Assembly (NCBI GenBank): GCA_964354105.1
Contig: CAYGXM010000001.1
Coordinates: 85,392-149,391 of the forward strand
Length of the DNA stretch: 64,000 nucleotides
Source of the DNA: Candidatus Woesearchaeota archaeon
GTDB taxonomy: Archaea; Nanobdellota; Nanobdellia; UBA10117
Reading direction: 5' to 3'
Shown: positions 4,634 through 55,633 of the stretch, piece after piece
Numbering within the stretch: position 1 is the first letter of the stretch
Layout: each line of letters starts with the position of its first letter
Notes under the pieces: generated by a model
Databases searched by the model: none
What the model was told of the DNA's origin: nothing
The model's input: the letters and a program-made list of their open reading frames with translations, nothing else
Position numbers and translations under genes: made by a program

Positions 4634-4673
4634 GTGATTTTTCTATCCCTCAAATTAGTTAAATTTGAGTTAT
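4634..4673 (+). repeat. intergenic repeat family 3, short copy
   Basis: Sequence GTGATTTTTCTATCCCTCAAATTAGTTAAATTTGAGTTAT, containing the hairpin CTCAAATT/AATTTGAG. Confidence 0.6.
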
Positions 4674-40582: not shown

Positions 40583-41194
40583 ATGGCCATAAACTTTCTA
40601 GCACAACTAGGGATTGGAACTATGCCTGCGAATGCGGGGCCTTTAGACATGGTTATTGCAATGCTGCAGAATTTCGGCTTTTTTAGGGTCATATTACCAT
40701 TTTTATTAGTGTTTGCGGTCATCTATGCAGTTCTGGCGAAAACAGAAGTGCTCGGCACCACAAAATCTGCAAAGAGCGCAGCAGCAATTGTAGCATTAGT
40801 CTCAGCATTTTTAGTAATTGTTTATACTCCTGTTGTTAGCGCAATTGCAACATTAATGCCACAGGCTTCATTCTTGATAATAATCGTAGTTTTGCTGTTG
40901 ATGGTTCTTGGAATGTTTGGAATCACATTTGGAGAAAAGGGCCCATGGGCAGGAAAACCAACTACGTTGTACATAATAGCAGCCATTGTCTTGGTGCTTT
41001 TTGTTGTGATGGTTGGCTATATATTAGGGCCGGATGTTCCTTTGCTGTATGGATTCAGCCAGCTCTTGATGGGCGCTCTTCCTGTAACAGGAGAAGTTCC
41101 TGCGGAAACTGTTGCACTGATTATTGGCCTGATAATAATCTTTGGAATAGTCGGCGGCGTAATCTACATGGTTACAAGGTCTGAAAAGCCTTAG
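40583..41194 (+). CDS. polytopic membrane protein, paralog of 41378..41974
   Basis: Contains FGFFRVILPFLLVFAVIYAVLAKTEVLG and ends in YMVTRSEKP. Confidence 0.55.
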   Translation: MAINFLAQLGIGTMPANAGPLDMVIAMLQNFGFFRVILPFLLVFAVIYAVLAKTEVLGTTKSAKSAAAIVALVSAFLVIVYTPVVSAIATLMPQASFLIIIVVLLLMVLGMFGITFGEKGPWAGKPTTLYIIAAIVLVLFVVMVGYILGPDVPLLYGFSQLLMGALPVTGEVPAETVALIIGLIIIFGIVGGVIYMVTRSEKP

Positions 41195-41243
41195 TTATTA
41201 TATGTTAGAGTTTTGTTGAAAGTCGCTTTTACTAAAGGGAATG

Positions 41244-41335
41244 CTTTAATGTTAATAACAGCCAGAGCTTGAGGCATAATAGCCAGCAGACTTTATTTCT
41301 GTATGATTTATACGATGTTAGAACTTGACCTTTGT
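41244..41335. repeat. intergenic repeat family 1, copy a
   Basis: Aligns with 57867..57966. Core: CTTAATGTTAATRACMGCYAGARCTTRAKGCATAWTAGCCAGCARACTTT, about 85% identical over the first ~50 nt. Confidence 0.7.
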
Positions 41336-41377
41336 AGCAGTAAACTTTTATAATGCCATTTCTGTAATAATACAGAT

Positions 41378-41974
41378 ATGGCCACGCTTGTTGATGCTCT
41401 TGGCGTCTTGAAAGGATTTGGTATCTATGACACTATTCTGCCGTTTCTGCTGATAATGGCAGGAACATATGCAATTCTTGTAAAATACGAGCCGTTTGGC
41501 AAAATTAAAGGAGTGAATGCGTTAGTCGCAACAATTGTCGGTCTGGTGTTTATTTCATTTGCAAAAGCCGTGCTATTCCTTAATTTATTGATACCGGCAA
41601 TGACAATATTTTTGCTTTTGCTGATTATGGCCCTTTTAGTGTTTACTTTCATAGGAATTAAGGGAGAGACGATTGCAAAAACATTTCAGGAGACACCAGC
41701 TGCCTTCGGCATATTAATCCTGATGTTTGTTGTTGTAATATTTGTAGTTGCCAGCTCGACTCTGCCTGAAGTTTCATTATTCATCCAGAATCCGGTTTTA
41801 GCACAACAATTAAACATAAGCCCGACCGGCGGAGCGACTCCAACAGCACAGGCAGCAACTTGGCTGATGTTCCAGATGACGCAAGTACTTCTCAGCCCGC
41901 AAATTCTAGGCTTGATTACAATGTTGGTTGTATTTGGAATTGCAGCTTATTTGATTACAAGAGAAAAAGATTAG
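41378..41974 (+). CDS. polytopic membrane protein, paralog of 40583..41194
   Basis: Contains FGIYDTILPFLLIMAGTYAILVKYEPFG and ends in YLITREKD. Confidence 0.55.
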   Translation: MATLVDALGVLKGFGIYDTILPFLLIMAGTYAILVKYEPFGKIKGVNALVATIVGLVFISFAKAVLFLNLLIPAMTIFLLLLIMALLVFTFIGIKGETIAKTFQETPAAFGILILMFVVVIFVVASSTLPEVSLFIQNPVLAQQLNISPTGGATPTAQAATWLMFQMTQVLLSPQILGLITMLVVFGIAAYLITREKD

Positions 41975-42085: not shown

Positions 42086-42730
42086 TCACCGTTTTCTTTT
42101 CCGTTTAGGTTTCCTTATTCCTTTTTCTTTTGCTTCTCCTACCAATTCCTGCAGCTCCTTGATGTTTTCTGTAAATGAAGGCAGGACTGTCCCAAAAACT
42201 TTCTGCATGGCCTTTAATTCAGTGCCAACATCAGAAATTCCTTTTCCGTATTCCTCAACTTTCCCAAGAACTTCCTGTATGACCATATCCATCTTTTTCT
42301 CTACATTAGAGATGCGCTCCTGCATGCCTGAAATTGTTGAAGAAATATCTTCCTGGGATCTTTTAATCTCGTCAAAGTCTCTGCTGAATTTCTGCCATCT
42401 TTCAGCAATGATGGCTTCTGCAATCTCTTCAATTTCTGCAGTCGTTGTTCTCCTTTCTGTTACTAAAGGAGCAGACGGCCTGAAAACTGGAGGAGAAGGA
42501 ATCGGCGGCAATTGTTGAAATTGTTGCGGCGGTCCTGCAGGCCTCATTTGGGAAGCTTGCATCCCTGCCAAAACATCAGCTGATGTAAAGCCTCTTGTTG
42601 TCAAATCCCTCATTTGAGGCTGCGATATAGACGGAGAAATAGGCGGGAGTTCAGGTATTTCAGGCAAGTTGCCAAAATCCATCGGCATTTCAGGTAATGC
42701 TTCTGGTTCTTTTCTCTTAAACAAAGCCAT
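42086..42730 (-). CDS. Pro-rich N-terminus + coiled-coil protein with poly-basic tail (MALFKRK family)
   Basis: Sequence MALFKRKEPEALPEMPMDFGNLPEIPELPPISPS... then a helical C-terminal half and KPKRKRKR. Confidence 0.5.
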   Translation of the reverse strand: MALFKRKEPEALPEMPMDFGNLPEIPELPPISPSISQPQMRDLTTRGFTSADVLAGMQASQMRPAGPPQQFQQLPPIPSPPVFRPSAPLVTERRTTTAEIEEIAEAIIAERWQKFSRDFDEIKRSQEDISSTISGMQERISNVEKKMDMVIQEVLGKVEEYGKGISDVGTELKAMQKVFGTVLPSFTENIKELQELVGEAKEKGIRKPKRKRKR

Positions 42731-42734
42731 TTGG

Positions 42735-43244
42735 TTAACTGCCTCCTTGCTCTTTTACTTTAATGCCGTGCTCTTTTAAAATGCTTTGCACCATTGTTTT
42801 TACTTCAGCTCTGGTAACAAATTGCAAAGGCTGCCAGAGTTCCACGTATCTTTCCAGAACCTTAACCTCTTCTTTTGAAGCAAGAGCTTCCATTCTTTTT
42901 GCAATTCGTTCAGTCATATCCTTCAAAGCATCAATATCTGCGCGGAGGGAGCGCATGCCATCTTCAACATCCCTAAGTTCAGAAATTACAGACTTGTGTT
43001 TTTCAATCAAACTGCTGTCAATAAGTTCAAGGTGCCCTCTTAAGTTGTCAGTTTTTTGCTCCAATAATTTAACTCTCGCCGCAATGTTAAGAACAGTTTC
43101 AGAAACTTTTTTCTCTAGAGCTTCCAGCTCGGGGGGCAGTCTCCTTTCCATAGGGGGAGCTTGCTGCGACATAGGTATGAATGCAGAGGCTGGCGCTGGT
43201 GCAGTCGTTTTTTGAGGAGAAAATAGGCCATCTGGCATATACAA
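42735..43244 (-). CDS. coiled-coil protein
   Basis: 169 aa with a TATA-like sequence 25-30 nt upstream. Divergent from the pilus ATPase gene. Confidence 0.5.
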   Translation of the reverse strand: MYMPDGLFSPQKTTAPAPASAFIPMSQQAPPMERRLPPELEALEKKVSETVLNIAARVKLLEQKTDNLRGHLELIDSSLIEKHKSVISELRDVEDGMRSLRADIDALKDMTERIAKRMEALASKEEVKVLERYVELWQPLQFVTRAEVKTMVQSILKEHGIKVKEQGGS

Positions 43245-43551: not shown

Positions 43552-45825
43552 ATGTCACAACCTGGAGAATTTCAAGTCAAGACAGAAGGTGGAATCAAAG
43601 TTCTTCGCATCAATTATGAGGGAGTTCTTTACACACCAAGCATAGAGGATGACCTAAACATAATGTCCAGAGTTTTTGACATTTTATTGGAAGTCGGCAA
43701 AGTAGGCAAAATCGTTTTCCTGCAGAGAGAAGAATATGAATATGATTGGGCGCAGGTGCGCTTGCTTTCAGAAGTAGTAGATGCTTACAAAAAATTAGTC
43801 CTGGAAGAAAATATTCTGGAAACGTCGAAGCTTGGAGCAACATCTGAATGCCAGAGATACATTCCCGGGTGGTATGATTTCTTAAGGGATACAATTATGC
43901 ACCAGCTGAAAGAAGATCCTATTGGAGCTTATGTTGAATTAGTGAGAAAGCATAGGGAGGAGTTGATAAAACAAAGAAATCCGCCAACTCCTGATTATGC
44001 GCTTTGTTCGCAAAGCTTCATCGAAATACTGCAGCACGCTATTGATGTAATAGGGAATACGGCTTTAATCAAAATATCCGCACAGCACCTGCCCGGCTTC
44101 AAGCCAGGGGACAGGACTTTATACAAACTGCACTTCAGGCCGGCGATTCGGCCTTATTTTGTTTATACAAAATTAGTTACCGAATATCCGACCGGAGCTG
44201 AAGAAATTGACAGTTATAGAATTGCAGAAGATACCGAAGTCCTGATTCTGAGAACACCGCAAGACCTCAGGCTAATTTACCACATAATTCCGCCGGAATT
44301 CAAGCTGACAGAAGAAAAGTATGCGCTCCTGACTGAAGCCAGAGAGGTAATGGCTGAGCACAGGCCGCAAAAGTCTGAATTTATAGACCCTGCAAGAACA
44401 AGGGAAATATTTCTGTCTGTTGAAAGGGATTTGATCCAAGATTTAGCAAGGAACAAAGGACTGAAATTAAATTATAAAGAATTAGAAGAGCTGGCAAGAA
44501 TCCTGCTTAGATATACAATAGGGTTTGGATTGATTGAAATCTTGCTTACAGATCCAAACATACAGGATGTTGTTGTCAATGCTCCGCTGGGAGCCAATCC
44601 TATTTCCATAATACACGGAGATTATGGCGAATGCCGGACAAACATCACGCCATTGACAAAAGAGGGAGAATCTTGGGCGACTAAGCTTCGCTTGATGAGC
44701 GGAAGGCCATTTGACGAGGCCAATCCCGTTTTAGACACAGACTTGTTACTGCCGGGTGCAAGGGCAAGAGTTGCAGCATTACAATCACCTTTATCGCCAT
44801 CAGGATTTGCATTTGCCTTCAGAAGACACAGAGATAAATCCTGGACGCTTCCATTGTTCATTAAAGCAGGCATGCTAACGCCATTAGCTGCAGGAATCAT
44901 TTCATTTTTAGTTGACGGTGCGCGCACAATTTTAGTAGCAGGAACAAGGTCTGCTGGAAAAACATCCCTGCTGGGCGCTTTGATGGTCGAGATTGCAAGG
45001 ACAAACAGGGTGCTTACGATTGAAGATACGCTGGAACTTCCTGTTGTACAGCTAAGACACCAGGGCTATGACATATTATCGATGAAGACTCGCTCGGTTA
45101 TAACAGGAGCAGAGGCAGAAGTTCCTGCAGAGCAAGCTATCAGAACTGCATTAAGATTAGGTGATTCCGCTTTAATAATTGGCGAAGTTAGAAGTGTTGA
45201 AGCAAGAGCTTTGTTTGAGGCCATGCGTGTAGGAGCCCTCGCAAAAGTTGTTGCAGGAACCATCCATGGAGATTCGCCTTATTCTGTATTTGATAGAGTT
45301 GTAAATGACCTTGGTGTTCCGAAAACAAGCTTCAAAGCCACAGATATAATTATGACTGCAAACACAATAACATCTCCGTCAGGCTTGGAGCGTTACAGGA
45401 GATTAGTAAATGTCTCAGAAATCAGGAAATTCTGGACAGAGGATCCTTTATTAGAAAAAGGTTTTGCAGACCTTTTGGTGTATGATGCAAAAACAGACAC
45501 CTTGCAGCCAACTGATGTGCTCCTAGAAGGTGAATCAGAAGTTCTAAAAGCAATTGGAGGCCGTGTTAAGGAATGGGCCGGCAACTGGGATGCAATCTGG
45601 GGCAACATAGAATTAAGGGCCAAGATAAAGCAAGCTTTAGTTGAAAATGCAGCAAAATCAAAACTTCCAGACATCCTGGAAGCGCCATTTGTGGTGGCAT
45701 CAAATGACGAATTCCACAGGCTGTCTGCAAAAGTTGCAGAAGAAGTAGGATTTACAGACCCTAAAAGAGTCTTTACAGAATGGAATAATTGGTTAAAGCA
45801 GCATGTAAAGAAGATGAAAGCATAA
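43552..45825 (+). CDS. type IV filament assembly ATPase (FlaI/ArlI-PilB-VirB11 superfamily) with long N-terminal extension
   Basis: Motifs GFGLIEILLTDPNIQDVVVN, Walker A AGTRSAGKTS, LTIEDTLEL, Walker B ALIIGEVRSVEA and His box AGTIHGDSP. Confidence 0.9.
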   Translation: MSQPGEFQVKTEGGIKVLRINYEGVLYTPSIEDDLNIMSRVFDILLEVGKVGKIVFLQREEYEYDWAQVRLLSEVVDAYKKLVLEENILETSKLGATSECQRYIPGWYDFLRDTIMHQLKEDPIGAYVELVRKHREELIKQRNPPTPDYALCSQSFIEILQHAIDVIGNTALIKISAQHLPGFKPGDRTLYKLHFRPAIRPYFVYTKLVTEYPTGAEEIDSYRIAEDTEVLILRTPQDLRLIYHIIPPEFKLTEEKYALLTEAREVMAEHRPQKSEFIDPARTREIFLSVERDLIQDLARNKGLKLNYKELEELARILLRYTIGFGLIEILLTDPNIQDVVVNAPLGANPISIIHGDYGECRTNITPLTKEGESWATKLRLMSGRPFDEANPVLDTDLLLPGARARVAALQSPLSPSGFAFAFRRHRDKSWTLPLFIKAGMLTPLAAGIISFLVDGARTILVAGTRSAGKTSLLGALMVEIARTNRVLTIEDTLELPVVQLRHQGYDILSMKTRSVITGAEAEVPAEQAIRTALRLGDSALIIGEVRSVEARALFEAMRVGALAKVVAGTIHGDSPYSVFDRVVNDLGVPKTSFKATDIIMTANTITSPSGLERYRRLVNVSEIRKFWTEDPLLEKGFADLLVYDAKTDTLQPTDVLLEGESEVLKAIGGRVKEWAGNWDAIWGNIELRAKIKQALVENAAKSKLPDILEAPFVVASNDEFHRLSAKVAEEVGFTDPKRVFTEWNNWLKQHVKKMKA

Positions 45826-45930: not shown

Positions 45931-47982
45931 ATGGCCGAACTGACACCTGAACAGAGAAAAACATTGTTTCTGAAATATAAGGACAAGATAGAGAAAGAAG
46001 TGGACCAGCCGGCTTCTATTAAAGAAGGCCCTAATGTAACATATTCTGAAGCTTATCAGATTTTCAAGAAAGAGCAAATTGACATCGGGCACAGCTTGTT
46101 TGAGCGTTTGTGTGCTGGCTCTGAAAAAGTGATAAAACTAAAACTGAAGCCTTCTGAAACAGAAAGGCTTCTGCCGTCCCTCGAGATGGCACACATCAGT
46201 GCAACTCCTGAAAGCGTGTATTCTTTCGCGACAATAACAACACTCATAGGAATAGTTCTTTCATTTGTATCCGGCTTGCTGCTCGGGAATTTTTACATAA
46301 TAATAATTGGGATGATAGCCTCTGCAGGAATTTTCTTTTACATTCCATCAATACCAAAAAGGATGTTTATGATATGGCGCTCAAAAGCTTCCGACCAGAT
46401 TGTCCTGGCAGTTTTGTATATGATAATTTACATGGAGCACACGCCTAATCTGGAGTTGTCAACATGGTTTGCCGCAAAACATCTTCCGCCACCACTCTCG
46501 CTTGATTTCATAAAAGTTCTTTGGGATGTCGAAACTAAAAAATACAGCAACATAACTACAGCACTAGAAGATTATATTGAAACATGGAGGGGCTGGGATG
46601 ACGCCTTTATCGATTCGATACATGTCTTGGAAACTGCATTATTTGCAGAAACAAAATCTGAAAGGTTAAAGACTTTGGAGAAGGCGGAAGAAATAATTTT
46701 AGATGGAACATATGACAAAATGCTGACATTTGCGCATAATCTGCAAAGCCCGATACAGACACTGCACATGCTTGGAACAGTTCTGCCAGTGATGGGCCTA
46801 GTAATGCTGCCCATGGTATCTGCTTTCATGGGCGCGTCAATAAAATGGTGGCATATCGCAATTCTCTATAACTTTTTATTGCCAATATCTGTTTATGCAT
46901 TGTCAAAATCTGTTCTGGCAATAAGGCCTGCAGGCGCAAATCCTGCAGATGTTTACATGCATCTAAGCCAAAAGTATCTGAAGCCAAAAATACCGCCGGC
47001 GCTTGTTGGCTTTGGCGTTTTTGCAGCAGTTGCAGCACCTGCAGTCGCCTATTTCACTATTATACAGCCTGCAGGAACAGAAGCCTTCACGACGATGCCA
47101 CTTTTGTTTTCAACTCTAGTTACTACAGCAATAGGGCTCGGGTTTGCAGCGTATTATTTCTACAAAATAAATCACCTGATTGCCATCAAGAAAAAAATAG
47201 CCCAAATCGAGAGCGAATTTGCAGCAGCGATTTTCCAGCTAGGAAACAAGATTGCACAAGGCGTTCCTGCAGAAGCGGCTATTTCAGCAGTTATGGAAGC
47301 CATGCCAAAAGCAGAAGTAACTGATTTCTTCAGAATCATCGATTATAACTTAAGAGAGCTTGGGATGAACTTGAAAGATGCAATCTTTGATGAAAAGAAA
47401 GGAGCATTGTCATTTTATCCTTCAGCCATAATAAAATCAGTTATGAATACGCTAGTTGAAGCTGCAAGAAAATCTCCAGAAATTGCTGCCGCTTCGCTGA
47501 TAACAATTTCAAAATATCTCACGAATGCACACAGAGTTAATGAAAGGCTTCAGGACTTGCTGGCAGATACAACTTCATCAATGTCAGCACAAATCAAAAT
47601 GTTTGCTCCAGTTATTTCAGGAATTGTTGTAGGCCTTTCAGCTTTAACAACATCAATCTTGTCAGATCTGGGAGACAAACTGAGAGGATTCGAAGCAGGC
47701 ACAGAGACGCAAGGCTTCGGCACCGGTTTATTGCAGGTTTTCCAGATAGAGCACATGCTTCCTGCTTATCAATTCCAGCTTATCGTCGGCGTATATTTGG
47801 TACAAATTGTTATTGTAATGTCTTTCCTGCTAAATGGAATAGTAAACGGGCCTGATAAAATAGAACAGGAGAACATGATGTCGAAGAATCTCATATTGGC
47901 AACATTATTCTATGCGGGTCTTACTGTGGCCACAACATTATTATTTGCGGGTCTCGTCGGTGACATAGTGGGGGTAATCTGA
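45931..47982 (+). CDS. type IV filament platform protein (FlaJ/ArlJ-TadC-PilC family)
   Basis: 683 aa and polytopic. Two cytoplasmic T2SSF-like helical domains, e.g. ESEFAAAIFQLGNKIAQGVPAEAAISAVMEAMP. Directly follows the ATPase gene. Confidence 0.8.
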   Translation: MAELTPEQRKTLFLKYKDKIEKEVDQPASIKEGPNVTYSEAYQIFKKEQIDIGHSLFERLCAGSEKVIKLKLKPSETERLLPSLEMAHISATPESVYSFATITTLIGIVLSFVSGLLLGNFYIIIIGMIASAGIFFYIPSIPKRMFMIWRSKASDQIVLAVLYMIIYMEHTPNLELSTWFAAKHLPPPLSLDFIKVLWDVETKKYSNITTALEDYIETWRGWDDAFIDSIHVLETALFAETKSERLKTLEKAEEIILDGTYDKMLTFAHNLQSPIQTLHMLGTVLPVMGLVMLPMVSAFMGASIKWWHIAILYNFLLPISVYALSKSVLAIRPAGANPADVYMHLSQKYLKPKIPPALVGFGVFAAVAAPAVAYFTIIQPAGTEAFTTMPLLFSTLVTTAIGLGFAAYYFYKINHLIAIKKKIAQIESEFAAAIFQLGNKIAQGVPAEAAISAVMEAMPKAEVTDFFRIIDYNLRELGMNLKDAIFDEKKGALSFYPSAIIKSVMNTLVEAARKSPEIAAASLITISKYLTNAHRVNERLQDLLADTTSSMSAQIKMFAPVISGIVVGLSALTTSILSDLGDKLRGFEAGTETQGFGTGLLQVFQIEHMLPAYQFQLIVGVYLVQIVIVMSFLLNGIVNGPDKIEQENMMSKNLILATLFYAGLTVATTLLFAGLVGDIVGVI

Positions 47983-49766: not shown

Positions 49767-50927
49767 TTAAAGCTTAACTCTTAATTGAAATTCGTTTAGT
49801 ATTTTATCTATCTTGTTTGCAGTCTTATCCCAACTAAATTTCTCGGCGTGCTTTCTAACTTTTTTTGAATATGCTGAAGCGCCCTTTTTGGCTACTATTG
49901 CCAGCTTTTTTGCAATGTCTGCTGAATCTGGAAACGGCTTTTTTATGCCCTTAGAACTTATTTTATACTGTCCTATTTTAACTCTCAGCTCAGGCGTAAT
50001 CTCCAATAACTCCTTTGATGCGCCCCAATCCAGTCCTATTACAGGTGTGCCGCAAGCCATGGCTTCTAAAGCCGGCAGGCCGAAACCTTCTGCACTTGCA
50101 TTTAGGCAAACATCTGCCAAATTATAAAATAAAACAAGATCTTTTTCAGTATAAATGTTATTGATGTAGCGCTGCGGGTCGGGAAAAGCGCAATTTTTCC
50201 TCAAGCCCAATTGCGCAACCAGGTCGAATAATTTGAAATAGCCAATTGGATGCGCATGTATGTAAATTTTCACCTTTAAGTCTGGATTTTCATCAATAAA
50301 TTTCTTGATGCCTGTCAATTGTTCTATGTAAGCCTTGTTTGCAGCATTTTTCTGCACTATTATTATGAGAAATTCATCTTCTTTTACAAGCGAAGGCGCA
50401 AATTTTTTCCTTATCTCCGTTTTTGAAGCTCCGAGCGGCTTGTACAAAGAAGAATCAACACCGTGATAAACAAAATCCTTGACATTAGACAAATCTGATT
50501 TCAGTTTTTGTTTTGCCCATTTGCACATAGGTATTATTCCGTTTACGCATTTTAGTTTTTCAAAAACGAAATCAGGTATTGGTTCAAAATCTATGGGAAC
50601 AAGGGCCAGCCATTTTATCAGGCCTTTTTTTGCGAAATCATAGGTTTTATCAAAAACAGAGAAATCTGATTCTGTAAAATACAAATCTGCAGAAAAGCTT
50701 TTGTAAATTTTTAACAAAGAAACTTCTCCTGTAGGGATATCTTTATTTAAATCACCCTTGAATATCGGAATACTATTTATTTTATCCGGGAAAAATGTGG
50801 CAGACACTGGAGCATAAATCCCTATTTCATATTTTTTAGACAAGCGCTTTACCCAGATTTCATTTAAGCTTCGAGCATAGCCGGTGTTTAAGCTAGGATG
50901 GTCTTTATGGGATACTAATATTTTCAT
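49767..50927 (-). CDS. GT-B glycosyltransferase, family 4-like
   Basis: Motif EGFGLPALEAMACGTPVIG (Ex7E region). Confidence 0.8.
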   Translation of the reverse strand: MKILVSHKDHPSLNTGYARSLNEIWVKRLSKKYEIGIYAPVSATFFPDKINSIPIFKGDLNKDIPTGEVSLLKIYKSFSADLYFTESDFSVFDKTYDFAKKGLIKWLALVPIDFEPIPDFVFEKLKCVNGIIPMCKWAKQKLKSDLSNVKDFVYHGVDSSLYKPLGASKTEIRKKFAPSLVKEDEFLIIIVQKNAANKAYIEQLTGIKKFIDENPDLKVKIYIHAHPIGYFKLFDLVAQLGLRKNCAFPDPQRYINNIYTEKDLVLFYNLADVCLNASAEGFGLPALEAMACGTPVIGLDWGASKELLEITPELRVKIGQYKISSKGIKKPFPDSADIAKKLAIVAKKGASAYSKKVRKHAEKFSWDKTANKIDKILNEFQLRVKL

Positions 50928-50984
50928 GTTGCTTAATGTTATAGAAAAATCAGGGTTTAAAATCTTATACTTTAGTGTGCACCC

Positions 50985-51081
50985 GTGATTTTTCTATTCC
51001 TCAAATTCGCGATTAAGCGAGAGGCGTAAAAACCACAGGCTTCAGCCCGTGGAATCACCTCGAGCAGCGAATTTGAGTTAT
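50985..51081 (+). repeat. intergenic repeat family 3, long copy with ~60-nt structured insert
   Basis: GTGATTTTTCTATTCCTCAAATTCGC[...CCACAGGCTTCAGCCCGTGG...]GCGAATTTGAGTTAT. It has the same flanks as 4634..4673 and an 11-bp closing stem. Confidence 0.6.
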
Positions 51082-51084
51082 GCA

Positions 51085-51099
51085 AGAAGATTTATATGC
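51085..51099 (+). promoter_or_regulatory. BRE/TATA-like promoter of the Kelch-like giant gene
   Basis: AGAAGATTTATATGC, 30 nt upstream of the ATG. Confidence 0.45.
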
Positions 51100-51120: not shown

Positions 51121-54100
51121 ATGAAAAAGGAGTTCAATCAGGCCTCACGAAGCCTGTTTTCAGCGCAATGTCCTGTAACTGAATGCAAAGAAGGCAAGCC
51201 CTCTAACAAATATTTAGAACTAAAAATTTATGATTCATATTTCAATCTGCTGGATAATTTTGCAGAATTTAAAACACAGTTTGATGCCATTAGCAAGCAA
51301 GGACACAGGGTTTGGCACAGCGAATTTGAAATAAATGACGTGAAATACACAATTAAAGCGCTGGATAACCAAATACTGCATACTTTTAGCGATGAAAATG
51401 GCGATTTCTCAACAGTTTTTTTGCCTGAAGGCTATGTTAAAATTGAAACTGCGGATAATGTTGAGTGGAAGTCTTTCGCAGAACTCCATAAAGAATTAAG
51501 GCAAGATGAAAAATTGCTAAACAAATTTGATGAAGCATTTGTAAAAGCAGAAAAAACTGAAATTACAGATGAATATTTTTCAGATTTAAGAATAATTTTT
51601 GCCAATTCACTATCACCTATGCACGCATTAGCAAAAGATGAAGTTTCATTTAACAAAATGCTCGGTTTGATTGGAACTTACCGTCCAGAAATTATCGATT
51701 TTGTATTCGAAACTTACAATTCTCCAAAAGGCCTATCTCAGATATTAGAGCATCAAGCAGATATCTCGTTGAAAGAGCTTCGGGCAACAAGGCCAGCAGC
51801 TCTAGAAGATGTTTTGGAAGCTGGAATGCTGCAGAAATTTGCATTGGCAGTTAAAAGAGGAATGACAACATTACCAGGTATGCTAGTTGCAACAGCGGGG
51901 GTTGCTGTTGCTGCAGACCATAATGCAGGCCATGATGCAGATTCAAAGGATAATAATATTGAAAGTAACAAAGATATTTCACAAAAACCAAATCCATTTT
52001 CTATTGATAATGGCTGGGAAAAGATTAACACGTCAAATGATATAATAAAGTCTTTATGGGGCCACCATTATGGATTAGCGCATATTTCAAAACACGATGA
52101 AATTCTTTTACTGCAGTACCATCACGCAACAAATGGTTTTTTCCAGACTTGGGTTTACCACTTAAATAATGACACCTGGGAAAACAAAACAAGCAGCATT
52201 CAGCCACCAGAGCCAAAAGAGCCTATTATTGCTCCTGCAAATATAATGCTGGCATATGATTCAAAAAATGACAAAGTTGTCTATGCAGAATATCCGTCTG
52301 CATGGGTAAACCAGGGAAAATTTGAGACATGGGTTTATGATGTAAAGACCAATATCTGGACTAACAAAACTACGGGCGACGAGCCTTCCGCCGCATTTGA
52401 AGGCACAAGAATATCTTATGATGAAGAAAGCGGCAAGATAGTAGCCTTCCCTTGCCCAAGTAATAAACCTCCATCCACATGTGATTATACATATACGTAT
52501 GATGCGGCAAGCAATAAATGGGAAAGCAAGGACACTTCCTTGAAACCAGCAAGCTACTATGCAGATTTCGAACTTTTTTATGTGGCTAAGGAAGGCAAAG
52601 TAAGCTGCATCAGCGACAAGGGCAGGTGGTCTTATGATGCAGCAAATGGCAATTGGGAAAACAAATCAGGAGAGCCGCAATACGTACCTGAGAGTTTTAT
52701 ATTTCCATCTTCTGTTTCCCCACCTGAATTTGCATATGATGCGCAAAGCAACAAATTAATCATGTTGGCGCATGGCTTTGAGACGTGGCTTTATGATCTG
52801 GATAAAAATAACTGGTCTGATGCAAAGCCTTTAGCAAACATACCTTATGGCGAGCTTGGCCACTATAAACTAATATACGATGCAAAAAGTGACAGGGTTA
52901 TCAGCACATTGATATTTGATGAATATACAAACCCCTCAAATTTCTGTCCGTTTGAAGTCTGGCAGTATTACTTCAGCACGCCTGCGCAATCACAGACATA
53001 TCCTACATTCATAATTCCTGACAAAGAAATTTTAATGCAGGGAACTCCGCAGCAAACAAATTATCCTGCAGCAGGCGATGACAACAATGTTGCAAACAAT
53101 CATGCTAATGGCCTTTTAGACCAGCAGCAATTCACTGCTGGCGGAAAGCCGATTGTGCTTTATAATGAAATTACAGGCTCAGATGGCTATCTTTACAAAC
53201 AATACATCCTGTATGAAACAGACAATCCTGTTTATGTTTTGATGCCCGGCTTCAAGGACCATCATGCGCAGGATATTGAAGCAGTTATAGACAAATGCAC
53301 ATTAGAAGGCAAAGTTTTGGAAAGAGCGACTTCCTATCATATAAAATACGGCGGCGGACAGTTTGAAAGGGGATGGAAATTTACAAATGATGCAACCAAG
53401 CCGGTTTACATAGAGCTGGCAGGCCATGCGATGTCCGCAAACAACAAGGATTTTTCCAACCCATTTGACATAGTTGTAAAAGATCCTGCAAATAATGAAG
53501 ACCTGCATCCTGCATTTTATCATAAAAATGGAAGGACGTTGACCCCAGAGAATTATGTCCTTATGCAATTGAGCAAGGTAGTTGACAACAGCCAGATAGA
53601 CGCTTATGACAGGTATAAAACAGAAGGATATCCTGAAGCTGCGCCTATTAAATTCGGAGACGCATCAAAAGTTCCGTGGAAATCAACAGCTTTTGTAAGC
53701 CCGTGGATAATTTTTAATGAAAAGGACAAGAGCGAGGCAAAAAGCTGGCAGAACCTGATTGAAGGAAATAACATAGAAGTCAGATTAGTTGCCGAAGGTT
53801 CAAGGCTGGTATTGGGAGAGGAAAATGGAGAAAAGAAAGCAGACCTCCCAGGCACATATGTGGCAGAGGGAAACAAGACCTTCCTAGCCGCTGACTTTTC
53901 TTCATACGATAATGTGCAGCTTGAGATTTGCGCAAAAGGAGACACACACTACAAAGATACAATGTATTTGACAAAAAATGTGAATGGCCAGAGTGTTGTT
54001 GAAGAAAAAATTATTGAAAAAGACATAAAGAAAGGCGAAACACAAATTGTAAAGCTAAATCCAGATACACTGCAGCCAACTATAACGCCAGGTAATGGAA

Positions 54101-54279
54101 ACAATACAAATAATCCGCAAGGCTCAAACAATTCAATTACATGGACTTACATTGCTGCAGGAACTGCAGGAATTGCAGCTGCAATCGGCATAGGCTACGT
54201 CATATACAGGAAGAGAAACCCGCCAAAAAGACCACAGCCTGCTGAATTTTATATGCAGCAGCAACAATCGCAAGCTTAA
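51121..54279 (+). CDS. giant two-TM surface protein with Kelch-like beta-propeller repeats
   Basis: Repeats are FQTWVYHLNNDTWENKT, FETWVYDVKTNIWTNKT, YTYTYDAASNKWESKD, GRWSYDAANGNWENKS and FETWLYDLDKNNWSDAK. Internal hydrophobic segment TLPGMLVATAGVAVAA; C-terminal TM segment WTYIAAGTAGIAAAIGIGYVIY followed by RKRNPPKRP. Confidence 0.65.
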   Translation: MKKEFNQASRSLFSAQCPVTECKEGKPSNKYLELKIYDSYFNLLDNFAEFKTQFDAISKQGHRVWHSEFEINDVKYTIKALDNQILHTFSDENGDFSTVFLPEGYVKIETADNVEWKSFAELHKELRQDEKLLNKFDEAFVKAEKTEITDEYFSDLRIIFANSLSPMHALAKDEVSFNKMLGLIGTYRPEIIDFVFETYNSPKGLSQILEHQADISLKELRATRPAALEDVLEAGMLQKFALAVKRGMTTLPGMLVATAGVAVAADHNAGHDADSKDNNIESNKDISQKPNPFSIDNGWEKINTSNDIIKSLWGHHYGLAHISKHDEILLLQYHHATNGFFQTWVYHLNNDTWENKTSSIQPPEPKEPIIAPANIMLAYDSKNDKVVYAEYPSAWVNQGKFETWVYDVKTNIWTNKTTGDEPSAAFEGTRISYDEESGKIVAFPCPSNKPPSTCDYTYTYDAASNKWESKDTSLKPASYYADFELFYVAKEGKVSCISDKGRWSYDAANGNWENKSGEPQYVPESFIFPSSVSPPEFAYDAQSNKLIMLAHGFETWLYDLDKNNWSDAKPLANIPYGELGHYKLIYDAKSDRVISTLIFDEYTNPSNFCPFEVWQYYFSTPAQSQTYPTFIIPDKEILMQGTPQQTNYPAAGDDNNVANNHANGLLDQQQFTAGGKPIVLYNEITGSDGYLYKQYILYETDNPVYVLMPGFKDHHAQDIEAVIDKCTLEGKVLERATSYHIKYGGGQFERGWKFTNDATKPVYIELAGHAMSANNKDFSNPFDIVVKDPANNEDLHPAFYHKNGRTLTPENYVLMQLSKVVDNSQIDAYDRYKTEGYPEAAPIKFGDASKVPWKSTAFVSPWIIFNEKDKSEAKSWQNLIEGNNIEVRLVAEGSRLVLGEENGEKKADLPGTYVAEGNKTFLAADFSSYDNVQLEICAKGDTHYKDTMYLTKNVNGQSVVEEKIIEKDIKKGETQIVKLNPDTLQPTITPGNGNNTNNPQGSNNSITWTYIAAGTAGIAAAIGIGYVIYRKRNPPKRPQPAEFYMQQQQSQA

Positions 54280-54310: not shown

Positions 54311-54490
54311 ATGGCCATTAAAGACAAAATCAACATGAGAGGAGATGCGCCCTGGTGGGCTTTTCTCGCGGCAGTTATCATAGCCATAGTTGTTGTAATA
54401 TTTTATCTTGTATTTTTCGGCAAAGTCAAAATAGGGGGAGAGGCCGCAACCACAGGCATCATAGACAAAATTGGCCAGATGTTCAAATGA
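54311..54490 (+). CDS. 59-aa single-TM protein, weak class III-like N-terminus; not in the supplied ORF track
   Basis: N-terminus MAIKDKINMRG|DAPWWAFLAAVIIAIVVVIFYLVFF, with a TATA-like sequence 29 nt upstream. Confidence 0.45.
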   Translation: MAIKDKINMRGDAPWWAFLAAVIIAIVVVIFYLVFFGKVKIGGEAATTGIIDKIGQMFK

Positions 54491-54639
54491 TTAAAGGCAA
54501 AAAAGGCGATATATGGTATGGCTACATAATTATGATAATACTTGGCATAATAGGAATTCTTTTTGTATTGTGGATTTTCAGAGGAAGCTTTAGCCCTCTG
54601 AGCAGCAAGCTACTAGCCTTGCTGAACCAGACAACCTAG
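54487..54639 (+). CDS. 50-aa single-TM protein, class III-like N-terminus
   Basis: N-terminus MIKGKKG|DIWYGYIIMIILGIIGILFVLWIF. ATGA overlap with the previous ORF. Confidence 0.45.
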   Translation: MIKGKKGDIWYGYIIMIILGIIGILFVLWIFRGSFSPLSSKLLALLNQTT

Positions 54640-54804: not shown

Positions 54805-55191
54805 ATGGCCAATTCAAAAGGACAAGGTCTTCCATTAAGCTTCATTGTAATAGCAGCAATATCAGTGCTGGTGTTGATAATTATAATTGCAGTTACGTTA
54901 GGCCCTGGCGGAGGCCTGCTGAAGCAATTGATTGCACCTGCGCCAACAGAACTTGGAACAGTGCAGGTTGCCTGCAATTCTTTCTGCGAGAGGGCAAGAG
55001 TGACTGTACAGACTCAAGATCAATATAAGGATTCAGATTATTGCACAAAAACATATGCCATAGATATCGATAAGGACGGCAAGATCAATACTAATGCAAC
55101 TGCTATGCCAAAAGAAGTTGGCCTGCATTGTGTGGATGTAGGTATGCTTTGCACAGTTCAATCAGCAAACGGCACACTATTAACTTGCTAG
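54805..55191 (+). CDS. pilin-like protein (candidate major subunit), 6 Cys
   Basis: N-terminus MANSKG|QGLPLSFIVIAAISVLVLIIII. Own TATA-like element and a GAGGT Shine-Dalgarno-like sequence. Paralog of the next gene. Confidence 0.7.
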   Translation: MANSKGQGLPLSFIVIAAISVLVLIIIIAVTLGPGGGLLKQLIAPAPTELGTVQVACNSFCERARVTVQTQDQYKDSDYCTKTYAIDIDKDGKINTNATAMPKEVGLHCVDVGMLCTVQSANGTLLTC

Positions 55192-55199
55192 GCTACAGC

Positions 55200-55215
55200 A
55201 AAACTATAAAAATAA
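55200..55215 (+). promoter_or_regulatory. TATA-like promoter of pilin-like gene 55235
   Basis: AAAACTATAAAAATAA, 31 nt upstream of the ATG. Confidence 0.45.
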
Positions 55216-55234
55216 CCTTTCTTCTTTTATTCTC

Positions 55235-55633
55235 ATGGCTAAAGGAGGCATTGACAGAAAGGGCCAGGGTTTGCCAATTAATCTTATTGTTATAGCCATA
55301 ATTGGAGTCATTGTATTATTGCTTGTTGTTGCTTTTGCAACAGGCACGTTAGGAAAATTATTTGGCGGCACTAAAGAATTGAGTGAATCAGTAACGCCAG
55401 AGCAAGTTGCAACATTCAGGATAGGATGCAAGCAGGCCTGCTTTGGTGCCCAGCAATTAGCAGATACGCCAGGCGAATGGAAGAAATCAGATTACTGCAA
55501 CAGAACAATAGGCGGGCAGCGTTGCTGGGAAATCGGCGCAGAATGCAGCAAGAATACAACAATTGAAGGCGTAAAGTGGTACTTTAATGCAACAGGCAAT
55601 AATCCTGGAGTAAATATAGCGGGATGTCAATAA
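55235..55633 (+). CDS. pilin-like protein (candidate major subunit), 6 Cys
   Basis: N-terminus MAKGGIDRKG|QGLPINLIVIAIIGVIVLLLVV. Shares the Cx3C...SDYC pattern with 54805..55191. Own TATA-like element. Confidence 0.7.
   Translation: MAKGGIDRKGQGLPINLIVIAIIGVIVLLLVVAFATGTLGKLFGGTKELSESVTPEQVATFRIGCKQACFGAQQLADTPGEWKKSDYCNRTIGGQRCWEIGAECSKNTTIEGVKWYFNATGNNPGVNIAGCQ

Follow-up and report, generated by a model that had tools for sequence, protein, structure and literature searches.

To our knowledge, little is established about the way in which ultra-small DPANN archaea identify a partner cell and reach its lipids and metabolites. Pili and surface proteins have been proposed as their interface with partner cells (PMC5498576). 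The locus described here raises the question of what a large protein encoded among the pilus genes of such an archaeon might contribute. The window, which is the whole stretch of 64,000 nucleotides (nt) analysed, spans positions 85,392 to 149,391 of the forward strand of contig CAYGXM010000001.1 (assembly GCA_964354105.1, Candidatus Woesearchaeota archaeon), and the gene in question lies at 51121..54279 of the window. The source is a DPANN-type small-genome Nanoarchaeia archaeon, whose assembly has 723 kb (0.72 Mb) in 14 contigs and is 87% complete. We consider it about an even call that the product, which is encoded in a pilus locus and given the working label P0001, is a large modular surface protein with a predicted membrane anchor at each end. 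What is new is that its slot and build are conserved in six other loci, that its N-terminal domain (N-domain) is an orphan, and that its C-terminal domain (C-domain) is NLP/Vps62-like.

Modules and predicted membrane anchors of P0001

The modules of P0001 are given below with their window positions; amino acid (aa) numbers refer to P0001 throughout. Labels beginning with P, G and L denote proteins, genomes and related loci, respectively, and those beginning with A denote alignments.

51091..51097 (+): TATA-like box TTTATAT, a candidate promoter read from the sequence, ~27 nt upstream of the ATG
51121..54279 (+): whole gene of P0001, 1052 aa, with an ATG start and zero internal stops
51121..51855 (+): orphan N-domain, aa 1-245, predicted cytoplasmic, delimited by conservation in homologues
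51865..51915 (+): internal hydrophobic segment TTLPGMLVATAGVAVAA, aa 249-265, putative first transmembrane segment (TM1), from hydropathy; found at the same position throughout the family
52006..52998 (+): Kelch-type region of six repeat units, aa ~296-626, predicted from repeats and profiles to be a beta-propeller
53002..53736 (+): NLP(NPP1)/Vps62-superfamily-like core, aa 628-872, from alignments A4 and A5, PDB profile matches, hhalign and sub-threshold NPP1 matches
53257..53280 (+): motif DHHAQDIE, aa 713-720, which corresponds to GHRHDWE, the NLP heptapeptide
53737..54075 (+): C-terminal half of the conserved region, aa ~873-985, conserved in alignments A1 and A2
54142..54207 (+): predicted C-terminal transmembrane segment (TM2) WTYIAAGTAGIAAAIGIGYVIY, aa 1008-1029, preceded by an Asn/Gly-rich linker
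54208..54276 (+): basic, Pro/Gln-rich, predicted cytoplasmic tail RKRNPPKRPQPAEFYMQQQQSQA, with 5 Lys and Arg residues (K+R) within the 15 residues after TM2

The frame is open from the ATG, which bears out the 1052-aa open reading frame (ORF) that an earlier note, made from the letters of the window alone, had placed at 51121..54279. No purine-rich or ribosome-binding-like stretch was seen between the TTTATAT box and the ATG; together with the spacing of the box, this would fit a leaderless mRNA.

Subsequent to the first 248 residues, which are polar, hydropathy analysis gave only two peaks in P0001, and both were kept in position among the homologues examined. At TM1, the Kyte-Doolittle mean was 1.48 for a span of 19 aa and 1.57 for one of 17 aa; KRG stands directly ahead of the segment, and an acidic, His-rich linker (aa 266-295) comes after it. 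The peak at TM2 reached 1.72 and is followed by RKRNPPKRP. These results agree with the earlier note in that an N-terminal signal peptide is lacking and that a C-terminal transmembrane segment precedes RKRNPPKRP. Its further claim of a hydrophobic membrane segment about 250 aa in held for the position, which is conserved, but the hydrophobicity of this segment is only marginal. The segment resembles a signal-peptide core ending in A-x-A. It is likely to be a signal-anchor or signal-like TM1, and that it spans the membrane is plausible; because it is marginally hydrophobic and has an A-x-A-like end, TM1 of the N-domain group could instead be no stable helix but a signal-like element that can be cleaved.

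In all 18 family proteins compared, more K+R follow TM2 than precede it; around TM1, more precede than follow in 10 of 11 N-domain proteins, the remaining one (from G403) being a tie. Since the charge bias around both segments fits, an N-in/C-in topology is predicted, as the earlier note had proposed; this charge bias speaks for it, but membrane spanning by TM1 is only plausible. NxS/T sequons were present at nine sites in aa 267-1006 and at none in aa 1-247, a distribution that gives a weak hint at an outside location of aa 267-1006. Two known kinds of surface element did not correspond to P0001. Its N-terminus lacks the short basic start and immediately following hydrophobic helix of archaeal type IV pilins with class III signal peptides. 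For PGF-CTERM/archaeosortase-type anchors, which we take to have a PGF motif before the C-terminal transmembrane segment and a very short basic tail, no PGF was present before aa 1008 and the tail has 23 residues. As hydrophobic anchors flank it, a ~740-aa ectodomain would be held on the cell surface by both ends. The earlier note took its ~750-aa extracellular loop for a propeller with further sequence left unexplained, and overlooked a conserved C-terminal region of ~380 aa with its core at aa ~628-872.

In the repeat region, motifs of the [FY]ETW.YD type start at aa 341, 401, 553 and 611, and those of the N.W..K type at aa 353, 413, 467, 512 and 565. The earlier note had reported five to six such repeats at ~52100..52990; we counted six units at ~52006-52998. 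Kelch propellers are characterised by five to seven such units in tandem, each of ~45-55 aa and with a conserved aromatic/Trp pattern, and the count in P0001 lies within this range. The sequence GWEKIN (aa 298-303), N-terminal to the other repeats, looks like the ring-closing strand of the propeller. In the profile searches that the earlier note had proposed as a check, Pfam Kelch_3 scored 25.0 bits on whole P0001 (cut-off 22), with no single stretch above the cut-off alone, and two propeller-wide Kelch models, Beta-prop_ATRN-LZTR1 (E 4.3e-7, 29.9 bits) and Kelch_KLHDC2 (E 4.9e-6, 26.5 bits), stayed below their 50-bit cut-offs. An exhaustive library search with P0001 gave 1367 representatives at E<=1e-3; among the 150 matches listed, most cover aa ~300-630. 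By BLASTP, the repeats matched the Kelch propeller of the G403 relative in several registers (E 2e-13), and that propeller scored 153.7 bits on a Kelch model. A phmmer search of the PDB with aa 290-640 gave 0 matches at E<=0.01. Taken together, aa ~296-626 is a good candidate for a six-blade Kelch propeller, so that the Kelch-like propeller of the earlier note is upheld on sequence and profile evidence. Because the propeller is missing from the orthologue of the same genus (G401, 710 aa), it is an accessory module.

The earlier note had also suggested examining how well the N-terminal part is conserved in related genomes. Two blocks, FN..SR.LFS..CP..EC.EGKPSN and SDLR..FANTL.P.HA.A.DE.AF...GLS..LEHQA, recur in at least 11 homologues (P0002-P0005, P0007, P0011, P0015, P0016 and the proteins of G401, G403 and G419), and the N-domain was seen only fused ahead of TM1 in pilus-locus proteins. 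It occurs in 4 of the 39 genomes of the order, each time in a pilus locus, and in 1 of the 401 genomes of the phylum sample, which is the source genome itself. No match was found in Pfam, NCBIfam, the PDB (single sequence) or the ESM Atlas, and an N-domain profile gave scattered noise against the PDB (best E 0.047, importin-5). An orphan, predicted cytoplasmic domain tied to archaeal pilus loci is hereby defined. A link of this domain to the cytoplasmic pilus machinery is a guess; complex prediction with the pilus ATPase scored 0.00 in two runs, which counts neither way.

The C-terminal domain and the NLP/Vps62 superfamily

Nep1-like proteins (NLPs) are toxins of ~24 kDa that bacteria, fungi and oomycetes associated with plants secrete, and they have a beta-sandwich-plus-helices fold like that of actinoporins (PMC6743777). 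They bind the terminal hexose of plant glycosylinositol phosphorylceramide (GIPC) glycosphingolipids and then damage the membrane, and their heptapeptide GHRHDWE is crucial for toxicity (PMC6743777). The C-domain core of P0001 and its relatives carries the motifs GDDxNVxNNH, Y.LY.TDNP, DHHxHDWE, S.H, GGH and KVPW. In A2, an alignment of 13 C-domain sequences including P0001, nine residues are invariant: D701, N702, P703, H715, D718, E720, S738, H740 and H769. The closest relatives have DHHAHDWE or DHHTHDWE at the heptapeptide position. The counterpart in P0001 is DHHAQDIE, in which H715, D718 and E720 are kept, with Q in place of H at 717 and I in place of W at 719. The full heptapeptide is therefore not common to the family; H, D and E alone are shared by all 13 sequences.

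Alignment A4 contains eight C-domain sequences and no Vps62-like sequence. Among the 401 sampled genomes of the phylum, it recruited two relatives, in G315 and G053 (E 4.4e-6 and 9.6e-4), and A5 consists of seven C-domain sequences and these two. When A5 was searched against the PDB (177,635 sequences), eight matches were obtained, and the top seven were all NLPs, from four source proteins: 5nnw, 3gnz and 6qbd (E 1.6-1.8e-4), 3gnu (5.3e-4), 6qbe (0.0031), 3st1 (0.019) and 9wsc (0.06). The alignments cover the GHRHDWE region and include SASAH. With A4 alone, the top 3 of 12 PDB matches were NLPs (E 0.34-0.44), and the segment from G415 alone matched an NLP at E 0.17; a full-length-contaminated A2 profile gave only noise against the PDB. 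Furthermore, hhalign of A4 against A6, a set of 14 proteins with precomputed PF06101 (Vps62), gave a probability of 89.2% (E 2.2e-6) over 83 columns corresponding to YW.FY...H.GDWE...S.H...GSH, and 16 of the 120 A5 matches listed carry precomputed PF06101.

Matches to the Pfam NPP1 model were below threshold. The slot protein of G415, which matches the P0001 C-domain at E 9e-13, was hit at E 0.0047 (17.5 bits, cut-off 21; profile positions 49-117). A pilus-locus protein of G301 was hit at E 0.0056 (15.5 bits), the only match at E<=0.01 in the 401 phylum genomes, none of which had a match at or over 21 bits; the genome of P0001 itself gave no NPP1 match. This G301 protein, of 1212 aa, is encoded at the far end of the pilus locus (L020:2658-6293) and has ~400 residues in common with the G415 slot protein (E 3e-30). 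It carries YHEHDWL at the motif, and its NPP1 match was fainter in a scan of the whole protein (E 0.21). The distant relatives in G315 and G053 scored 20.3 and 17.3 bits on Vps62 (cut-off 22.1); they have N-terminal signal peptides and no pilus genes among the flanking ORFs.

From the ranking of PDB matches by A5, the hhalign result with the Vps62 set and the sub-threshold NPP1 matches, the core (aa ~628-872) is assigned at profile level to a superfamily with NPP1 and the HxGDWE part of Vps62, as a member of neither Pfam family. Homology to solved NLPs was thus detectable with the A5 family profile. NLPs are small, secreted, single-domain cytolysins; in P0001, the domain forms one part of a 1052-aa chain that also contains two hydrophobic anchors. 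No hydrolase family of Pfam or NCBIfam matched the C-domain, the ESM Atlas gave no usable match to it, and no NCBIfam family was found for P0001. The region behind the core, aa ~873-985, is probably a beta-sandwich stalk; sub-threshold Pfam matches of this region in homologues were EMC7_beta-sandw (E 0.012), DUF2141 (E 0.028) and DUF5077 (E 0.056). The assignment of the core would extend the NLP/Vps62 superfamily into Nanoarchaeia.

Placement in the pilus locus and exchange of modules

The earlier note had placed P0001 within a pilus locus. This is confirmed by an ATPase gene, a platform-type gene, at least ten pilin-like ORFs and the conserved placement in relatives. The main genes around P0001 are as follows.

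43552..45825 (+): TadA/FlaI-type pilus ATPase, 757 aa, heading the locus (TIGR03819 E 4e-38, FlaI model E 5e-36, both scores below the equivalog cut-offs)
45931..47982 (+): polytopic membrane protein, 683 aa, presumed pilus platform, with 9-10 hydrophobic segments and always adjoining the ATPase
54805..55633 (+): pair of pilin-like genes next downstream of P0001 (128 and 132 aa), whose N-termini are class-III-like and of the KGQG-LP type

The polytopic protein had no Pfam match. The pilin-like ORFs downstream share a short basic start, a KGQG-LP-type motif and a hydrophobic helix, and a prepilin peptidase is encoded elsewhere in the source genome (55.3 bits). Because of the ATPase, the polytopic protein, the pilin-like ORFs and the prepilin peptidase, we regard this as an archaeal type IV pilus locus.

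Full-length relatives of P0001 are few: seven proteins, P0001 included, were found among 5.8 billion, and P0011, P0015 and P0016 were added from a representative library. The related-locus search with alignment A1 yielded one metagenome locus (L003) and none in genome contigs. A match in L005 (Bacteroidota) was set aside as it lies within a UvrA-like ORF, and so was a match in G406 (E 4.7e-4), a 485-aa ORF without the family build or motif. A protein of the same build lies between assembly and pilin genes in six other loci, namely L003 and the five listed here.

G401 (L018, same genus): 710 aa, without propeller
G403 (L012): 1090 aa, N-domain, Kelch and metallophosphoesterase (Metallophos)
G312 (L004): 829 aa
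G415 (L014, inverted): 947 aa, on the opposite strand
G419 (L036): 1071 aa, weak N-domain, propeller-like region and Metallophos, 0.7 kb past the platform gene

In L003, as in the source locus, the small membrane ORF and the pilin genes come after the homologue, and the two pilin genes also follow the homologue in L004, L012 and L018. Among eight loci of relatives inspected from the ATPase onward, four had the same-build protein in the same slot; the loci of G301, G414, G418 and G420 have a different arrangement.

The order common to the family is N-domain, TM1, His/Ser-rich linker, an optional propeller, C-domain or metallophosphoesterase, a beta-rich piece, TM2 and a basic tail. P0003, P0006 and P0007 (~710 aa) have no propeller. 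P0009, P0062, P0075 and P0128 have the C-domain and TM2 like P0001, but only 50-130 residues before TM1. At the position of the NLP-like domain of P0001, a calcineurin-like metallophosphoesterase is found in P0005 (58.4 bits), P0015 (62.2) and the proteins of G403 (59.3; L012:6345-9614) and G419 (71.0; L036:3713-6925), which looks like a swap of effector modules within one scaffold. The C-domain region, not the propeller, is the most frequent common part of the pilus-locus relatives.

A pilus ATPase is present in all 31 related genomes, and the C-domain profile had matches in 5 of the 401 sampled phylum genomes. Between G401 and the source, identity is 86% for the ATPase, 56% for the N-domain and 61% for the C-domain. 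Because of the patchy distribution of both domains, these differences in identity and the swapped modules, the P0001 family is an accessory, fast-evolving, module-swapping component of the locus.

Several other features were observed around the gene. A glycosyltransferase of the GT4 family (Glycos_transf_1, 46.7 bits; 49767-50927, minus strand), divergent from P0001, lies between a 373-aa assembly-type gene and P0001. Because there is no gene at that position in L004, L012 and L018, it looks like a genome-specific insertion. Between its start and that of P0001, a G+C-richer stretch at 50975-51085 can form a hairpin of -40.9 kcal/mol on the minus strand (z -4.26, 0 of 200 shuffles as good) and of -33 on the plus strand (z -2.9). 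Rfam gave no match in the intergenic region upstream of P0001. The first 23 nt of the hairpin (~50985-51007) are repeated with 96% identity at window positions 4634-4656 and at G000:C1:37993-38015, and both other copies have TTATAGAAAAAT before them and a short inverted repeat after them. A small RNA might begin in this stretch, or it might be a regulatory site that the copies have in common.

Downstream of P0001, a 94-aa ORF (54355-54639, plus strand) has its last ~50 residues (KKGDIWYGYIIMIILGIIGILFVLWIFRG...) kept in the ORF after the L003 homologue (L003 2016-2213), and the actual gene product is probably a single-helix protein of ~50 aa whose translation begins at an internal Met. Just upstream of the ATPase, on the opposite strand, two coiled-coil proteins of 214 and 169 aa (42086-43244, minus strand) had only generic coiled-coil Pfam matches, a faint FlaC_arch match (E 0.15) included. 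Two paralogous polytopic membrane proteins of ~200 aa (40583-41974, plus strand), of no known family, are encoded ahead of the locus. In a genome of the same order, the pilus ATPase match at G418:C1:754345-756597 has one in-frame TGA.

Proposed role and comparison with known systems

The genomic context, the accessory distribution, the rapid divergence and the swapping of modules argue for a role in contact with another cell or surface. The reading that we prefer, at a confidence evenly balanced between for and against, is that P0001 is a contact or recognition module working alongside the pilus, with its propeller and an NLP-like pocket; an adhesin or host-contact role would follow from context and domain types. 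In this model, the pilus would draw the partner surface near, and the propeller and the NLP-like pocket would then bind surface ligands. By analogy with NLPs, the His-Asp-Glu pocket may bind the sugar head group of a membrane glycolipid via a bound cation. The beta-rich stalk (aa ~873-985) would carry the outward modules, and the cytoplasmic N-domain may report to, or dock on, cytoplasmic components. The family would thus be a concrete candidate host-contact factor: it is encoded in a pilus locus, predicted to be surface-anchored and quick-evolving, and it has swapped outer modules and an NLP-related domain. If the domain is merely lectin-like or structural, P0001 would be a routine adhesin-type surface protein. 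A bolder form of the model, which we hold to be unlikely, is that the NLP/Vps62-like domain is a cation-dependent glycolipid-head-group binder that locally destabilises or opens the partner membrane when the two cells have been drawn together by the pilus. On this view, the family would offer a first candidate for the long-sought factor with which Nanoarchaeia-type symbionts breach host membranes or fuse with them. The propeller and phosphoesterase modules would in that case set the choice of target, and the N-domain would couple the event to the symbiont cytoplasm.

Several results weigh against the contact reading. TM1 is marginal (Kyte-Doolittle 1.48-1.57; insertion energy, roughly estimated as a sum, ~+3.5), and the motif of P0001 is degenerate, with QDIE where HDWE is expected. 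Neither P0001 nor the 12 other members of A2 matched the Pfam NPP1 or Vps62 models even at E<=10. The C-domain core of P0001 alone had no match in the PDB, and the Vps62-annotated alignment alone did not find NLPs there; the link to NLPs is remote and comprises only ~65-85 residues. The C-domain was found in 6 of the 31 relatives with a pilus ATPase, one of these (G406) apparently spurious. Since it is missing from most ATPase-bearing relatives, the pilus itself needs no C-domain.

The last point bears also on another explanation, namely that P0001 serves its own envelope as a stator- or scaffold-like anchor at the pilus base, with the ectodomain bound to the cell's own surface layer or glycans and the N-domain contacting the motor. 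A protein that is membrane-integral at both ends could not travel with the filament; members are always encoded in the pilus locus, adjoining ATPase and platform genes, and the N-domain, seen in 4 of the 39 genomes of the order, is confined to pilus loci. A core part would, however, be expected in most pilus genomes, and the ATPase occurs in 31 of 31 genomes, against at most 6 of 31 for the C-domain and 4 of 39 for the N-domain. The ectodomain also exchanges modules (propeller, NLP-like, phosphoesterase), and its divergence far outpaces that of the ATPase, as is typical of outward-facing interaction proteins, and we regard the envelope role as rather unlikely. The exchanged phosphoesterase in turn suggests a surface enzyme or scavenging platform, in which a metal-dependent catalytic module would act on external phosphoesters, lipids or glycans to nourish a cell of scant biosynthetic capacity, and the conserved H/D/E/H residues would be catalytic instead of forming a lectin-like pocket. 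Same-build relatives do carry a calcineurin-like metallophosphoesterase in this position (58-71 bits), several His, Asp and Glu positions of the C-domain are invariant, and a genome of 0.72 Mb is very small. However, the C-domain matches no hydrolase family, and NLPs are described as cytolysins that bind sugar head groups, not as enzymes, in the available parts of PMC6743777 and PMC13159263; catalysis is an improbable function for this module.

A different objection concerns the N-terminus, which might lie outside the mature product if translation starts near Met236 or Met248, giving an ordinary Sec signal peptide, or if cleavage occurs after AVAA(265), leaving a type I surface protein. The segment at aa 249-265 is short and Ala/Gly-rich, has KRG ahead and an A-V-A-A end followed by a polar stretch, and its hydrophobicity is marginal for a stable transmembrane helix. 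Nevertheless, at least 11 homologues of different genomes keep the protein sequence of the 245 upstream codons, fused and in the same frame, the TATA-like box lies ahead of codon 1, and the relatives with a short N-terminal tail still have 50-130 residues before TM1. Cleavage after TM1, for its part, would leave the N-domain inside the cell. Such a shortened product is very unlikely, and the contact or recognition module remains the reading with which we compare known systems below.

PilY1-type adhesins of bacterial type IV pili, to which a role in surface contact is ascribed, are large propeller proteins encoded beside (minor) pilin genes. For its export PilY1 has an ordinary signal peptide, and its place is on the filament. 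Like these adhesins, P0001 is large, has a predicted propeller and is encoded near pilin genes, but it is predicted to be membrane-anchored at both ends, its propeller is of the Kelch type, and no PilY1/PilC family was among its Pfam matches at E<=0.01. In the NLPs (NPP1, PF05630; 3GNZ, 3GNU, 5NNW, 6QBD, 6QBE, 3ST1, 9WSC), the order of motifs is the same as in the C-domain: an aromatic-rich Y.WY..D strand, H-x-H-D-W-E followed by a hydrophobic strand, and S-x-H. From the heptapeptide, P0001 retains His, Asp and Glu. However, the match covers ~1/3 of an NLP, the domain is one module of a membrane-anchored archaeal protein of 1052 aa, and P0001 has no Pfam NPP1 match, its relatives reaching 15.5-17.5 bits against a cut-off of 21. 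With the Vps62-like proteins (PF06101), which include a 'Vps62-related protein' of Candidatus Woesearchaeota, the likeness is the profile-profile match at 89% probability; in contrast, P0001 and its 12 closest C-domain relatives have no PF06101 match at E<=10. The Vps62 peptide HVGDWEH itself resembles the NLP heptapeptide (PMC13159263), and a portion of Pfam's model for Vps62 is reported to represent a beta-tripod domain in its own right (PMC8624791, PMC7613979). The beta-tripod motif D-x-G-S/T-G was not seen in the aligned columns, although no search aimed at this motif was made.

A description of an NLP- or Vps62-like domain in DPANN pilus loci was not found in the literature searched, of which the largest listing was only partial, so this is not proof of absence. 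In archaea, ORF8 of the haloarchaeal plasmid-vesicle elements of the pR1SE family has a predicted structure that aligns best with NEP1/NLP, and a membrane action has been proposed for it (PMC10818511). Set beside P0001 from that description, it is likewise an archaeal protein with NLP resemblance, there by structure and here by sequence profile, but it belongs to another lineage and to plasmid vesicles rather than a pilus locus. For the DPANN archaeon ARMAN Mia14, pilus loci with linked adhesion-type proteins, together with Kelch/YVTN surface proteins, were proposed as the host interface (PMC5498576). In both cases the archaeon has a small genome, a large surface protein carries a Kelch-type propeller, and genes of the adhesion type are linked to type IV pilus loci. 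The Mia14 proteins are described as secreted surface-layer proteins fused to CARDB/PKD, or as LamG proteins (PMC5498576), whereas P0001 combines a predicted two-TM anchor with an orphan cytoplasmic N-domain and an NLP/Vps62-like module.

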